A program made the position numbers and the translations under genes. From IMG/VR virus record IMGVR_UViG_3300025005_000028, positions 1 to 29,660 of that record: DNA of 29,660 nt. One strand, written 5' to 3'. Below, piece after piece: positions 11,169 to 21,043 of the stretch. Source of the stretch: a virus. Taxonomy: Duplodnaviria > Caudoviricetes. Below the pieces are notes generated by a model. That model was not told the origin of the DNA. It made no database searches and saw only the letters and a program-made list of their open reading frames with translations. The first letter of the stretch is position 1; every line of letters begins with the position of its first letter.

Positions 11169-11534
11169 TCAACCCCCCTTGGCCATGACCCTTGGCTCGA
11201 ACTCGGCCTTGTTGCTTAAGGCGATGTTGGATCGGCACAGCCTGCCATCAACCGCTATCCGTTCGGCTTTCATGTAGCCACACTCCTCAAGCTGGTCAAA
11301 AGCTCTGGTCACATCCCGACGGTCTATGCCAAGCCTTCTCGATACCCTCCTGGCCGAGATTTCCCAACTTGATTCGTGTAGGAGGATGTAACAAGCAATC
11401 CTGAAAGTGGTCGGTGGCAAGCGTCGATCTTCGGTCATGCTTGCCAAAACGGGGGCGAATGGTTGATCTGTGTGGGCGAAGACGTTCACGGGTGATCCTT
11501 TTGGAAAGTTGAGGGGTGCTACATTTTTACCCAA
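11169..11534 (-). CDS. Winged HTH protein resembling phage replication-initiator N-termini (possibly frameshifted)
   Basis: DRRLPPTTFRIACYIL...SARRVSRRLGIDRRDVTRAFDQLEECGYM; TTG start is uncertain. Confidence 0.65.
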   Translation of the reverse strand: MGKNVAPLNFPKGSPVNVFAHTDQPFAPVLASMTEDRRLPPTTFRIACYILLHESSWEISARRVSRRLGIDRRDVTRAFDQLEECGYMKAERIAVDGRLCRSNIALSNKAEFEPRVMAKGG

Positions 11535-11651
11535 CCCCTACAAAATCACCCCACCCCTACAAAATCACCTCATGACTCAGTGGGTCAATTTCCCTCACCA
11601 CCCCCACATTAGCATAATTACCCCACTCACCAGTGAGGTGATTTGACCCAC
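11534..11651. repeat. Iteron-like direct and inverted repeats
   Basis: ACCCCTACAAAATCACC at 11534-11550 and 11553-11569 (exact copies); 19-nt inverted repeat at 11580-11598 / 11633-11651 (16/19 match). Confidence 0.8.
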
Positions 11652-11695: not shown

Positions 11696-11724
11696 TTGCT
11701 TCCAAAAGCAATTTGATGTAGAAT
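11696..11724 (+). promoter_or_regulatory. sigma70-like promoter upstream of the structured RNA candidate
   Basis: TTGCTT(11696-11701)-N17-TAGAAT(11719-11724); expected +1 near 11731. Confidence 0.7.
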
Positions 11725-11730
11725 TTTTTT

Positions 11731-12130
11731 GTCAAGCGGCGCAACTGCTCGACAAACCAAGAGCCTTTAAGTCTTGGCTTTCAATCCCGTAAGGGACACG
11801 GTTGCGCAGTGGAAAGCCAAGAACCTTAAAGGCTTTTTTCGTTTCAGTTGCGTCGCTTGACCGTACTCCACACGTTAGCAGTGGCCTTGCATGGGGCGCT
11901 TGGAGTCGGACACCGAAACATGGGCACACACACCATGTTCATCGACCAGCCTGTTTGCTAGGGACTGGTGAGCGCTGTTTTGGCAAAGTGGTGAGAAGCC
12001 GGAACAGCGTGAAGCGAATAGCTTGCTCATGGCTTGTTGTCGGTGACGGCAACTATCTGGGCCTCCCCTCATGGATCGTTTGGGAGGTTGGGATCAGAGA
12101 GTGATCGAGGTAGTAATCCTCATCACCCTT
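11731..12130 (+). ncRNA. Candidate ~400-nt structured non-coding RNA, family not recognised
   Basis: About ten helices found by eye, with G-U-compatible mismatches on the + strand, GNRA tetraloops, an upstream promoter and no convincing ORF. Confidence 0.6.
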
Positions 12131-12182
12131 TGCTGAACCTATGGAAAATCCAAAAATGGCAAACTCTAAATTCACGCGCATC

Positions 12183-12249
12183 GCATGTTTGCGCGGTGGG
12201 GCATTTTTGTAAAAAGCATGTTGGCATGGTGGGGCCTTTTTGTAAAAAG
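12183..12249 (+). repeat. 33-nt-period tandem direct repeat
   Basis: GGTGGGGC(A/C)TTTTTGTAAAAAG at 12195-12216 and 12228-12249 (21/22 match), each preceded by GCATGTT. Confidence 0.85.
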
Positions 12250-12366
12250 TGCTGAAAAATGTCGGGGGGATGGGTCACCAATCACACGCGCGCGAACGGC
12301 GGGACGGCCACCACCCCCCCCGAAGTCACCCCCTTTTTTAGGGGAAAACAGCTTTTCCGTAGGAAG

Positions 12367-12945: not shown

Positions 12946-12962
12946 TAAGCCAGCTCGTCCAG

Positions 12963-12984
12963 AAAGCCGCACACGCGGCTTTTT
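12963..12984 (+). terminator. Rho-independent terminator candidate
   Basis: AAAGCCGC-ACAC-GCGGCTTTTT just after the stop codon. Confidence 0.6.
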
Positions 12985-13078
12985 GGCGTTGGACAGACCA
13001 GCCTGATGCGCATACACCATGCGCATTGGAGTGCTCTGTCGCACAAACGTCCCAGCGTTACCTGGGTAGGAGTACGTC

Positions 13079-16758: not shown

Positions 16759-18726
16759 ATGCCAAACACAGCAATAACCTTGTTTATCGAGGAAGCGAAC
16801 AAGAACGTAACGATGGTATTGAACCGGCTTCCAACCGGCATGACGCCACGTTATCAACCAACCCTCTTTGCAGGCGGGACAGAGATCACTGATCTGGTTA
16901 ATTCGACCACAGACTTCTTCTTGTCTGACCAATTAAAGCATCAAGGTATGTTGGCTCAGGTCTACTCCGTGCTGTCATGCGGTGGACTCAGGCCATCGGA
17001 GACGAAGGATGCCTTGACCAAGATCATCCGAGCCGGTCTTGTTTATGAGGCGGAGGCAAACAACGCCATGGCGGCGTACATCCGTAGCGGTCTGCTATCA
17101 CAGTACAAGCAGCTTAGCTTCCGGTGGTTGTTGAAGGTGATCAGCGTCAACGACATGGCCATGCTGGCCATCAGCTTGAGCAATGCGAGGGTGACTGAGG
17201 CAATCCTTGTTAACAGACTGGTTACAGGCGCTTGGACTAACGCAGCCGGAAACCTCGGCTTCGATGTTACGGCGTGGGTCTCTAGTTTCAAAACCAAGGC
17301 GGAGTCGAAACGTCCAGGAGAAAGCGTCGCCTATATGTGCTCCCATTGGCTTACCGGCCCATTCTTAAACGGGTTCAGTAAAACGCCAAGCTCGGTAAGT
17401 GTTTCCTCTTCATCATTCAGTTCTTTCGTCAACCAAGGAGTAAATCAAATGGCCTCTATCAACACCGCTTCCAATGTCCTGTCCTCTGTGTCCAACCTCA
17501 AGCCTGAGCTGAGCACCCTGATCAACGGTATGTTGACGCAGTTCGGTGTCCCATCAACGCTTGCAGAGCTGGCGGAGAGCGCAGCAAAGGCTGAAGAGTA
17601 CGCCTTGCGTGTGGATGCTGTTGAAGCTCAGGCAACCGCCGCCCAGGAGGCTTCGGATAAGATGATTTCGGAGCTTCGCATCAAGTTGTCGAGCCAATCG
17701 GCCATGCCAACCACAATGGCTATCCCAAGCGCGGCAACCACTATCCCGGACGGGACAATGAGCATGGTTCAAGCATCCGATCTGTTCCCCTTGCTTGCTG
17801 GCACGACACTGATGGTTCCGCACTTCACATGGGACAGCGCCCACCCGGACGTGCCAGCAGTCGATGATGAGTACATCTTCCGCAAGGAGATGCTTATCAA
17901 GGCGCTCCAATGCCTCACCTCAAACGATAACCTCTGGCTTACCGGCCATACGGGTTGTGGCAAGACGACGTTCATTGAACAGATCGCAGCTCGCCTCGGT
18001 TGGCCGGTGGCACGAGTTGCTTTTGATAGCAATGTTGACCGCGCGGAGTTGGTCGGGCGCATGAGTCTGAGCGGAGATGGCAAGGGTGGCACAGTGTCGA
18101 GCTGGCTACCCGGAGTTCTGGAGATCGCCTTGTCACGTGGCTACATCCTGCTTTGCGACGAGCTTGATGCTGGCCATCCCAATGCGCTCTACACACTCCA
18201 GCCAGTGCTTGAGCACAAGGGATTGCTGCTACTGGAGGACGGTGGTCGGCGTGTCCCATTCACTCCCATGGCAAGGGTGTGCGCGACCGGGAATACCACT
18301 GGCAATGGCGACGACTCCGGCTTGTACCCAGCCTGCCGCATCATCTCCGCTGCTACGCTTGATCGCTTCACGACCTTCGTCATGGTTCCGTACATGACTC
18401 ACGATGAGGAGGTCAAGATGATCAACTCGAAGGTGCCTGGGTTGGCTCCGCAACTGGTTGAGGCAATGGTCAAGTTTGCAATCGAGATGCGACAAGCGTT
18501 CGTGACCCACCAGACACCGATCAGCTACTCGCCGCGTCGCTCTGTAGCGTTCGCCCGTGAGGTTCAAGGCCTGATGTTTATGGGGTACACGAATGAGACG
18601 ACGGCACTCACGGCAGCCTTCCGCTCGAAGCTGTACGACGCATCACCCGAAGAGTACCGTCAGCGCATCACTGAACTGGCGAACGCTTGCTTCGGGTCAA
18701 TCGACCCAACCAAGGTTCTTGAGTAA
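16759..18726 (+). CDS. CobS-like MoxR-family AAA+ ATPase with a long N-terminal extension
   Basis: VPAVDDEYIF, Walker A GHTGCGKT, EQIAARLGWP, Walker B LLCDELD, ATGNT.G.GD.SGLY, ATLDRF, SPR. Confidence 0.9.
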   Translation: MPNTAITLFIEEANKNVTMVLNRLPTGMTPRYQPTLFAGGTEITDLVNSTTDFFLSDQLKHQGMLAQVYSVLSCGGLRPSETKDALTKIIRAGLVYEAEANNAMAAYIRSGLLSQYKQLSFRWLLKVISVNDMAMLAISLSNARVTEAILVNRLVTGAWTNAAGNLGFDVTAWVSSFKTKAESKRPGESVAYMCSHWLTGPFLNGFSKTPSSVSVSSSSFSSFVNQGVNQMASINTASNVLSSVSNLKPELSTLINGMLTQFGVPSTLAELAESAAKAEEYALRVDAVEAQATAAQEASDKMISELRIKLSSQSAMPTTMAIPSAATTIPDGTMSMVQASDLFPLLAGTTLMVPHFTWDSAHPDVPAVDDEYIFRKEMLIKALQCLTSNDNLWLTGHTGCGKTTFIEQIAARLGWPVARVAFDSNVDRAELVGRMSLSGDGKGGTVSSWLPGVLEIALSRGYILLCDELDAGHPNALYTLQPVLEHKGLLLLEDGGRRVPFTPMARVCATGNTTGNGDDSGLYPACRIISAATLDRFTTFVMVPYMTHDEEVKMINSKVPGLAPQLVEAMVKFAIEMRQAFVTHQTPISYSPRRSVAFAREVQGLMFMGYTNETTALTAAFRSKLYDASPEEYRQRITELANACFGSIDPTKVLE

Positions 18727-18754
18727 TCACAACATCAACACATAAGGAATCAAA

Positions 18755-21043
18755 ATGAGAGCAGCAATTTTCCAAGACGCTGTTGAATCCAGCGCAAAGG
18801 TAATCGGACGCAAGAATGTTCGAGTGGTTTTCAGTGGCGATCAAGCGTGTACGGATGGCTACACCGTTACCTTGCCATCAATACCGCCATCCCACGAAAT
18901 CACGGTCGATCAGGCAGATGTGATCAGAGGCTACAGAGACCATGAGTCGATGCACGTAAGGTGTACCAACACCTCGAAAGGAACCATCGAAAGGCTGACC
19001 AAGATGACGAAATCAAGCCCCTTGTTGGGTAGCATGGCGCAATACTGTGAGGACATCAGGATTGAGCACGCTGGGGTGCAGGAGTATGCTGGGATGAAGC
19101 ATACCCTGAGCGCCACCAACACTCGCGCAGCCCTTGGTTTGGAGGAAGAGATCATCAAGCACGGAGGGATGGCCGACGTAATGGCTGGTCTCGACGTGCC
19201 TAAAAAGATGCAGATCATTCTGCAAGCGATGGGTCGACGCAAGATAGGGGTGCATTCTCATAGCATCTACGACAAGATGTGCGACGCTGTGAAGGCAGTT
19301 GACCCAGCAACCTATGACCTTGCGGAACGCTTCTCCGACCTCATGGTGGCACTGCCTACGGGCTACAAGGACGGCAAGCTGGATGAAGCTGCAAGCAAGA
19401 AGGGGACTGCTCTGGCGCTAAACCTTGCACAGGAAATCTGCGATGCAATCGACGCGCTCCAACAAGCGCCAGCGGGGCAACCTCCTCAGCCTCCTCAATC
19501 CGACCCTGGTGAAGAGCAAGGCCAGGGGCAGGGGCAGGGCCGAGAGCAGGGACAGGAGCAAGGTGATGGCGGCGACCCGTCCACAGAGCAAGGTCAACCC
19601 GGCGACCAATCAGATGGCAAGGGTGGCAATGGAGAGCAGGGTAACGGCGCCAATGGCCAAGGCGATGGCGGCGATGAGGACGGTGGAACCCAAGGCAGCG
19701 GAGATAGTGGCGGCGAAAGTGAAGGCGATGACAAAGCACCCGGCTCCAGCGATTCGCAAGGAGGAGGGGGTGGTGGAAGCAGCAGCACCACAGAGCAGCA
19801 AGACGGCAAGGCACCGCGAGCCAATGGCGGTGGCGATCACAAGCCAGAGGATGTGAAGCAGGGTGGCTCAGCGAATGCGTCTGGACGTGGGTCAGGTGGT
19901 GTCGTGATGCCGTCGGATGCTCTGTCACAGTTGGATGACTTGTTCAAGAGTGCGCTGAACAGCGTGGTCAATGACATCTCAAACAATGACCCGCTCAAGA
20001 AGAACCGTGTTACCAAGTCGTTCTGCGTTTACTCCCGCAACTTTCAGCAGGTCGTACCCATCATGGATGCTGTGCTCGCTGGCCAGGGTGAGACCGGCAG
20101 TGGGTACAGAACGTCTGCAATCCGTCGCGCCTTATCCATAGCAGATCGGATGAAGTTGGAGATCGCTGGCAAGAGGGCCATGATTCGTCGAGTCCTGGAG
20201 CTTGAGTTGCAAGCGCGCAGTGATCGTCGTTGGGAGTCCGGCTACCGGTCTGGACGCCTTCAGTCAATACGTGTCGTGGATGCAATTCAAGGGCGGGACA
20301 CGGTGTATCAACAGCGCAGAGATGGTAAGGACATGGATACCCTGCTCTTCATCTCTCTGGACGGAAGCCAGTCGATGACGGGCTTGGGTCGTGCGTACAA
20401 TTCTGCCTGCCTTGCGCTTGCGTTGTCGGAGGCTTTGGAGCGTACTGGATGCGACATTATTGTGAGCATGTGGGGAAACATCGCTGTCACGCAGTCACAC
20501 AGTAGCGCGTCAAAGTACACGTCAGCGGATGTCCAAAGGCTCAGAAAATCCGGCGGCTTCGATGAGTATGGCCGACCAGATTGTTCGGATAACAATTATG
20601 TCAGCTCAGGCCTCCTCACTCGCGGTCGAATCAAGGATATACGTCAGTGCGTAAGCGATCCCGTTGTACTGGCCGGGTTCGGAGCCAGCGTTGAGGCGCT
20701 GAACTGCTGTACCCCTGCTTACCACGCCATATTCACTGACCTTGAAGAGCTTTCAAAGCAACGCCACTCCAAGAAAATCTACCTTTTCCTGACGGATGGC
20801 CAAGCTGATACCCTCCCGAGGGCGTTCTCAAAGTCTGCATTGATGAATGAAGCGCATCAGTACGCTGCATCCATTGGAGTCCACATGATTGGGGTTGGTA
20901 TCGGTGGGATGGATGTGAGCCACCTATTTACTGACTCAATATCAGTCCAAGGTTCGGATGCTTATGAGCCGGTCATCCGAAAGCTGGCCAAGCTGGTAGC
21001 AAAGGAGGCAGGCCATGAAGCGGGTTTCCGTCGCGCGGCTTGA
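18755..21043 (+). CDS. CobT-like vWA-domain protein with N-terminal HExxH and acidic Gly-rich linker
   Basis: ACTDG..V.LP, DHESMH, EDIRIE...Y.G; G/Q/D/E-rich linker; MIDAS motif DGSQS, CTP and LTDG. Confidence 0.88.
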   Translation: MRAAIFQDAVESSAKVIGRKNVRVVFSGDQACTDGYTVTLPSIPPSHEITVDQADVIRGYRDHESMHVRCTNTSKGTIERLTKMTKSSPLLGSMAQYCEDIRIEHAGVQEYAGMKHTLSATNTRAALGLEEEIIKHGGMADVMAGLDVPKKMQIILQAMGRRKIGVHSHSIYDKMCDAVKAVDPATYDLAERFSDLMVALPTGYKDGKLDEAASKKGTALALNLAQEICDAIDALQQAPAGQPPQPPQSDPGEEQGQGQGQGREQGQEQGDGGDPSTEQGQPGDQSDGKGGNGEQGNGANGQGDGGDEDGGTQGSGDSGGESEGDDKAPGSSDSQGGGGGGSSSTTEQQDGKAPRANGGGDHKPEDVKQGGSANASGRGSGGVVMPSDALSQLDDLFKSALNSVVNDISNNDPLKKNRVTKSFCVYSRNFQQVVPIMDAVLAGQGETGSGYRTSAIRRALSIADRMKLEIAGKRAMIRRVLELELQARSDRRWESGYRSGRLQSIRVVDAIQGRDTVYQQRRDGKDMDTLLFISLDGSQSMTGLGRAYNSACLALALSEALERTGCDIIVSMWGNIAVTQSHSSASKYTSADVQRLRKSGGFDEYGRPDCSDNNYVSSGLLTRGRIKDIRQCVSDPVVLAGFGASVEALNCCTPAYHAIFTDLEELSKQRHSKKIYLFLTDGQADTLPRAFSKSALMNEAHQYAASIGVHMIGVGIGGMDVSHLFTDSISVQGSDAYEPVIRKLAKLVAKEAGHEAGFRRAA

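Follow-up and report, generated by a model that had tools for sequence, protein, structure and literature searches.

The known systems that come closest to the locus examined here include RNA replicons of plasmids and sense-strand RNA leaders of phages. ColE1 and the MRB plasmids replicate from RNA, without a Rep protein (PMC3035462, PMC6380287). The MRB plasmids of Vibrionaceae possess a Rep-less origin that encodes RNAs and is convergent with that of ColE1, and RNA-mediated initiation was reported in 2010 to be known in only two plasmid families (PMC3035462). Three plasmid-borne covarying motifs of 223-349 nt, ARRPOF, GEBRO and PAGEV, have been linked to replication by their context (PMC5737381). 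In the P4 CI/seqA-seqC and Gifsy-1 IsrK leaders, short complementary segments on the sense strand accompany premature termination ahead of replication genes (PMC4825925).

The phage element described below recalls these systems in several respects. As with ColE1 RNA II/RNA I, a predicted promoter-driven, folded RNA of several hundred nucleotides lies in a replication locus that has no full initiator, and a variable 5′ loop is its likely specificity element (PMC6380287). As with the MRB replicon, the putative origin would be Rep-less and RNA-encoding (PMC3035462). Unlike ColE1, the element is phage-borne and has no sequence or Rfam match, homology to RNA I or RNA II being absent by Rfam and by plasmid BLAST; its control looks like a sense-strand terminator with an internal complementary pair, X-X′, whereas ColE1 has the antisense RNA I; and a headless initiator domain, that is, the C-terminal part alone, usually follows the phage RNA. 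It differs from the MRB replicon in being a phage RNA in other hosts, with a pseudoknotted core, a partner protein and no plasmid-collection match, and from ARRPOF, GEBRO and PAGEV in belonging to phages and in matching no Rfam model.

The element lies in a 29.7-kb phage record, the whole of which (29,660 nt) is the window analysed here. The record encodes an SU10-like portal, a large terminase, an integrase, a CobS/CobT-like pair, a primase-polymerase/helicase fusion, Sak4 and Cas4-like proteins. Other assemblies also contain identical or near-identical copies, as do sequencing runs from groundwater, aquifers and hot springs. A single near-identical contig from such runs covers the whole element region, and four DNA sequencing runs contained no variants within the element; the carriers listed included no RNA run, which bears neither way on expression. 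On its left stands a helix-turn-helix (HTH)-only gene resembling phage O-type initiators, and on its right a G-rich block (~12240-12345). The features of the locus are as follows.

11169-11489, minus strand: HTH-only O-like initiator gene of 106 aa that corresponds to just the N-terminal half and is oriented away from the RNA
11539-11651: to the left of the promoter, iteron-like repeats at 11539 and 11558 together with an inverted repeat
11696-11724, plus strand: sigma70-type promoter candidate identified from sequence, -35 TTGCTT, 17 nt, -10 TAGAAT, predicted +1 near 11731
11731-11753, plus strand: 5′ hairpin of module A with variable segment X (11739-11745), predicted from the fold of the 108-nt form
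11759-11839, plus strand: terminator-like rod of module A, with a GNRA hairpin (11785-96), X′ (11801-11807) and a six-T tract (11834-39)
11845-11861, plus strand: sequence that can also pair with the 5′ end, giving the 17-bp outer stem peculiar to the window's phage
11861-12030, plus strand: core of module B (type I), with P1, P2 with a UGCAUG loop, P3, P4, P5 and a pseudoknot (11955-60/12019-24)
12031-12100, plus strand: variable region with two phage-specific hairpins, not alignable across homologues
12101-12143, plus strand: 3′ hairpin with a CACCC motif at its end, followed by a decayed ribosome site and by an ATG that opens a frame of just 23 codons
12183-12248: 33-nt tandem repeat with two inverted copies of the iteron-like motif (12195-12211, 12228-12244)

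The HTH-only gene matches PF13730 (E 4.6e-8) and positions 37-106 of the 383 in phrog_270, its status as an N-terminal half resting also on the length of P0009; used as a query, it matched only itself. In the early region (16759-21043), the CobS-like protein is an AAA ATPase with a long N-terminal extension, accompanied by its CobT-like partner. The early genes are followed by a repeated unit, a hairpin plus TTTTTGGCGTTG, in the window (12959-12992) and in the related loci L017 (five copies) and L020; this unit is possibly a regulated terminator or a processing signal.

The first-pass annotation had proposed a single, highly structured RNA of ~400 nt belonging to no family it could name. The element is indeed structured and non-coding, but it consists of two modules, A (11731-11839) and B (11861-~12030), rather than one. 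On the plus strand, 11731-12130 folds at -177 kcal/mol (z -7.10), a value equalled by none of 100 shuffles; the minus strand folds at z -5.28. The rod supplies most of this signal (z -9.6). The 3′ part folded alone reaches z -2.47, with 3 of 200 shuffles as good, and this part, weak by folding energy, is the one whose helices covary among homologues. The rod itself is present as annotated, with its 17-bp outer stem (11731-47/11845-61), inner rod and TCCC-GTAA-GGGA tip, and so are the listed 3′ helices. The suggested G-U bias toward the plus strand was likewise recovered (108 G-U versus 14 A-C among paired cells, the structure having been assigned on that strand). Across homologues no reading frame is conserved, the distances between anchors falling 26/22/16 over the three frames.

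Above the gathering threshold of Rfam 15, the window and the homologue loci gave only tRNAs, with hairpin matches below threshold, and no family matched the element at E-value thresholds either. ARAGORN found nothing in the window element, BLAST of it against phages and plasmids gave nothing useful, and no minus-strand promoter of the kind that would drive an antisense, RNA I-like transcript reached the scanner cut-off over the element in the window. A search of the literature, mostly of freely readable papers, found no description of it, the supplement of PMC5737381 being a place where motifs outside Rfam may be listed. A structured, non-coding and uncatalogued element is thus supported at the level of sequence, because its helices covary, no Rfam model matches it and a promoter is conserved upstream.

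Two pattern searches combined yielded at least 121 distinct 170-nt homologous sequences. With a pattern taken from the beginning of the 3′ domain, at least 120 loci were retrieved (~240 estimated), of which 115 were scored with a profile that was built from those same loci, and is therefore circular for those rows, one row being a self copy. The second pattern, which targets another stretch of the domain, retrieved at least 120 more, 117 of them real, and the 5′ motif is conserved in this set though the pattern did not force it. The 15 loci retrieved by a rod-tip pattern comprised 11 unrelated sequences, one self copy and three contigs representing one true homologue, 75% identical and with a different downstream part. 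In GTDB, 4 of 87 pattern matches were real and 83 were chance, the real ones lying on short contigs labelled Comamonadaceae, Burkholderiales, Gammaproteobacteria and Chitinophagia. A complete 41.8-kb phage in GenBank, MW202484.1, carries a variant of module B (107.7 bits) with P1 changed on both sides, and its 71 features include no annotated helicase, primase or full initiator. BLAST against a plasmid collection gave no match to the family. The synteny search through terminase genes found none in GTDB, and synteny via the small and large terminase led only to relatives without the RNA or to identical copies. The family belongs to freshwater and groundwater phages. In some of these, tRNA genes stand just upstream of the cassette (L040:457-529, L058:162-509, L050).

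Module B was assessed on 43 representatives under 93% identity (mean 59%), of which 38 were aligned; five that aligned poorly (L048, L049, L095, L129, L152) were left out, and the covariance model R1 still finds all five. The same model scores the window, which is among its members, at 114 bits. On an alignment made from sequence only, 84.5% of cells are paired as against 67.8% after shuffling (0 of 500 shuffles as high), with slid controls at 30-38%; such covariation does not separate an RNA from a displaced single DNA strand. P2 is paired in 99.5% and P4 in 97.9% of cells. The pseudoknot 11955-60/12019-24 is paired in 96.1%, all six of its pairs vary on both sides, and these pairs topped an unguided covariation scan, from which the structure was itself partly drawn. 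The loop-loop pseudoknot proposed earlier between TTAGCAG and TTGCTAG found no such backing: only 39.5% of its cells pair, 485 of 500 shuffles score as high, and the covarying partner is a different one. Two putative 3-bp pseudoknots fit the data yet barely vary. P5 is paired in just 54.7% of aligned cells because of register shifts; folded singly, it forms at least 7 bp in 38 of 38 sequences. Its GUG segment is unpaired in only 22 of the 38, so a CAY/GUG pseudoknot is weak.

Many unpaired residues of module B are invariant. The CACCCYYRG motif, whose version in the window is CACCCTTTG at 12124, occurs in 108 of 138 homologues, 210-284 nt past the start of the module, and in most homologues the 3′ hairpin adjoins a ribosome site and ATG. 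The two divergent subfamilies formed by L048, L095 and L152 and by L049 and L129 share the 5′ P1/P2 domain and differ in their 3′ parts. An HDV-like ribozyme was considered and rejected. Such ribozymes form a nested double pseudoknot with an invariant catalytic C in J4/2; here, it is a hairpin loop that contains the pseudoknot strand, and the position preceding GAA is not constant.

Upstream, the promoter of the first-pass annotation is present (TTGCTT at 11696-11701, TAGAAT at 11719-11724), but it matches the consensus at 8 of 12 positions and falls under the scanner cut-off. Promoter-like sites of at least 9/12 precede the RNA in 45 of 94 scored homologues, as against none of 76 control stretches. 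A stem followed by a U tract ends 98 of 116 distinct upstream regions of homologues, and in 91 of those 98 the rod contains a perfect X-X′ complement of at least 7 nt, a feature found in about 6-7% of controls (61 of 923 mismatched pairings, 118 of 1960 shuffles). The different X-X′ strings recorded number 38. In its 108-nt form, module A folds as a 5′ hairpin plus rod, and the rod of the window shares 73-76% identity with the L079 and L034 leaders. The 17-bp outer stem is real in the window but does not generalise: 91 of 98 homologues have a complement of at most 7 nt there, by a count that requires unbroken Watson-Crick pairs and in which the window itself scores 8. The outer stem would be an alternative fold adopted after read-through.

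Internal complementary segments and a terminator ahead of replication functions are thus found in module A, as in the P4 CI and IsrK leaders, with no homology to those described families by Rfam. It departs from them in that one hypervariable 7-9-nt pair lies inside a terminator rod, and what follows is a large RNA, not protein genes. The related locus L016 has, in the slot of the element, a full-length initiator with internal repeats after a 90-nt rod that covers its ribosome site; this rod carries its own 6-nt X-X′ pair, so such a leader can precede a protein initiator or an RNA.

Lambda O-type initiators carry an origin-binding N-terminal domain, and their genes contain internal iterons. 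The gene slot and neighbours of the RNA resemble those of the lambdoid O-P operon (Sak/Erf and exonuclease; RusA, NinB and a P-like loader), whereas the origin-binding N-terminal domain and the internal iterons are absent and an RNA cassette stands in their place. In the second-pattern set, the usual arrangement is lambdoid: to the left of the RNA lie Sak/Erf and exonuclease and then a small HTH gene, and downstream follow a gene of 100-150 aa, methyltransferases, RusA and NinB. The gene after the RNA matches initiator profiles only in their C-terminal part, through two domain families (positions 171-274 of 288 in phrog_9474; 219-296 of 346 in phrog_678), and initiators of 260-340 aa elsewhere end in the same domain. 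A C-terminal-domain gene lies at most 1 kb downstream of the RNA in 50 of 70 loci; 20 are without one. The small upstream HTH gene was entertained as a split-off initiator head and rejected, since it matches MarR-like families rather than initiators; a similar-looking gene, judged by eye, precedes the full-length initiators of L450 and L451. The 5′ half of an initiator was not found upstream of the RNA in homologue loci. The headless domain has no PDB sequence match and no clear fold match: its model (pLDDT 72.6) resembles DnaD domains at Z 4.0-4.2 and SPP1 G39P at Z 4.9, within the noise of helical bundles.

A search by the domain alone covered the best 80 of 539 viral hits and nine GTDB loci. 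All of the best 80 are of the short form, and 74 carry exactly one RNA (38 of type I, 13 of type II and 23 of type III, the latter two described below); in the remaining six the upstream sequence is cut off, so that 74 of 74 informative loci carry an RNA. The 80 loci are all at least 86% identical to an RNA-bearing query and form one tight clade, and truncation in that family may therefore be one event; a tree likewise places it as one change (support 80/64). Among the GTDB loci, three are short with RNA and six long without; none of the six long-form loci has any of the three RNAs, and these are distant prophage relatives rather than siblings, with the N-terminal part of L451 lacking an identification. 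The absence of a full Rep at the origin, which marks ColE1 and MRB, is thus found at 74 of 74 informative viral loci, with exceptions among records.

Those exceptions appear among 31 RNA-bearing records, 22 of them near-complete. Fifteen of the 22 have only the C-terminal domain, two also have a full-length initiator elsewhere and five have neither form; PF13730 was found in none of the 22, and a full-length initiator of the four families searched was not detected in 20. The RNA and a full-length initiator occur together in 4 of 31 records (G007, G012, G017 and G031); late genes surround the RNA in the last two. G030 has the order RNA, headless O, P-like loader. Four larger phages (G013, G016, G025, G029) have the RNA upstream of ParB-like/helicase(/primase) genes, directly so in two, and MW202484.1 has the headless gene upstream of the promoter. 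In the window's phage, the RNA is not followed by a C-terminal-domain gene; the N-terminal half is kept instead, and the phage has its own primase-helicase. Some phages, that of the window included, carry the RNA beside protein replication genes. In two unrelated phages, the cassette stands just before a major-capsid-type gene (L034:545-1000, type II; L464:12474-12641, type I; the capsid assignment was tested only in L464), which suggests mobility, and HNH genes flank some copies of the RNA.

The same slot is filled in other loci by two further conserved stretches.

L414:2095-2322, also in L417, L448 and L034:670-889: type II, conserved non-coding stretch of ~230 nt
L392:2074-2422, also in L394 and L424: type III, conserved non-coding stretch of ~350 nt

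Type II also stands behind the rod homologue L034, and neither type has an Rfam match. Type II shows six two-sided pairs in nine sequences, and its stability does not exceed that of shuffles; among the 14 sequences of type III, which are too uniform for a covariation test, there are none. The sequence-based case for types II and III as structured RNAs is accordingly weaker than that for type I. Leaders of type I loci share 94-96% identity with those of type II or type III loci, and the genes downstream share 96-97% whichever RNA type the locus has; on a tree of poor resolution the types intermingle, with 16 changes where the minimum would be 3. As judged from these comparisons, the three RNA types swap between near-identical flanks (94-97%).

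In L006, L017 and L020, a putative small terminase gene, named by position only, directly adjoins the G-rich block, and no element is present. The G-rich block, next to which the annotation had placed the RNA, aligns in the window and in L006, L016, L017 and L020, four relatives without the RNA, and is therefore independent of it. The DnaA boxes of the annotation do exist (12367 and 12378), but they are absent from all four related loci checked and do not form part of the RNA. The G/C-rich, hairpin-like block (12240-12345) lies upstream of the putative small terminase gene, with L002 ending inside it and L016 just beyond; it is possibly a genome end or a packaging signal. The iteron-like motif of the tandem repeat has no further match in the window. 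Iteron-like repeats lie upstream of the HTH-only gene in the window and inside the gene in L016 and L007, and a 20-nt direct repeat (11168-11187/11660-11679) that brackets the HTH-only gene and these repeats is possibly a rearrangement scar.

The fold, the covariation, the pairing in the leader, the slot and the interchange are observed. Because the RNA usually sits where the initiator's DNA-binding half is missing, it is likely to be an RNA-based starter of replication, and we lean, by a little more than an even chance, toward the promoter-leader-RNA cassette as a ColE1-like replication origin that replaces that half. The replication-priming role floated in the annotation thus gains from the truncated-initiator context of the homologues, but draws no support from the G-rich block or the DnaA boxes. 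Host RNA polymerase would start near 11731, and module A would normally end the transcript at the U tract; how often it is read through would depend on the variable X-X′ pair, which would probably determine replicon specificity as well. In a transcript that runs past the terminator, module B would fold and keep its 3′ part bound to the template near the CACCC motif, forming an R-loop that would open the duplex in the manner of ColE1 RNA II. Where a headless initiator domain is encoded, as is common, that domain (aided by the P-like loader, if there is one) or host proteins would load the helicase and prime. The window's phage, which has lost the downstream domain gene and encodes a primase-polymerase/helicase, would use the cassette as an accessory origin whose flanking repeats would be bound by the HTH-only protein. 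Transcription, termination control, R-loop formation and helicase loading are the steps that we infer.

Several other explanations must be weighed against this origin. The whole element could be a long cis-regulatory leader, an attenuator plus sensor, of the early replication operon, with the initiator shortened for other reasons. Such a leader would account for the promoter, the terminator-like rod and the hairpin that in most homologues runs up to a ribosome site and ATG, for the position of the RNA at the head of replication operons and for module A alone preceding a protein initiator in L016, and it has a precedent in P4, where sense RNA pairing terminates ahead of replication genes (PMC4825925). 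We consider it unlikely, for it leaves the missing origin-binding domains and the three unrelated slot-filling RNAs unexplained; moreover, only a 23-codon frame lies downstream in the window, and in MW202484.1 the headless gene is upstream of the promoter. Decidedly unlikely is a role of module B as a protein scaffold, in which the nascent RNA tethers the headless domain and helicase to the transcribed origin instead of serving as primer: the many invariant unpaired residues and the close linkage with the headless domain in two families speak for it, but three unrelated RNAs accompany domains that are 96-97% identical, so that a single binding surface is hard to envisage, and the RNA also occurs without the domain (in the window and in 20 of 70 loci).

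The same covariation is predicted if the active form is single-stranded DNA, in which case the strand that transcription displaces would carry a signal for primosome assembly or for primase. The conserved promoter and U-tract terminator upstream, the G-U excess on the transcribed strand and the GNRA loops and several pseudoknots, which are RNA-like features, make this very unlikely, even though it has been noted that replication-linked motifs could function as single-stranded DNA (PMC5737381). A selfish or catalytic cassette, a ribozyme or mobile element whose insertions at early promoters disrupt initiators by accident, would explain the copies at unrelated sites, including late regions and the slot in the window, and the HNH genes beside some of them; it seems highly improbable given that the 5′ half of the initiator was not found upstream, that no ribozyme or intron model matches and that the base before GAA varies at the HDV-like position. 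That the element is a packaging RNA acting with the neighbouring terminase, another option of the annotation, is scarcely credible. The element is ~1.1 kb from the putative small terminase gene, but a phi29 pRNA-like molecule would be conserved with the packaging motor, and this RNA is absent from L006, L016, L017 and L020, its closest relatives, which have that gene and the G-rich block; its homologues lie mostly in replication operons.

The best-supported mechanism, an RNA-based origin, thus copies a known kind, while the RNA families themselves match nothing catalogued. For a widespread group of aquatic phages, the chances appear evenly balanced that the O-type head has been replaced by any of at least three unrelated and interchangeable folded RNAs behind a shared attenuator with a 7-nt specificity pair, giving a hybrid RNA-protein initiator. 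If true, these would be the first RNA-defined origins in lambdoid phages, and the three convergent RNAs, together with the protein half that remains, would illustrate how RNA can take over from a protein initiator. They would also explain the replication of many small aquatic phages that have no recognisable initiator, and provide small, interchangeable replicons whose specificity code can be read. Should the origin reading prove wrong, there is still a new pseudoknotted RNA family with more than 100 members, together with two candidate families.
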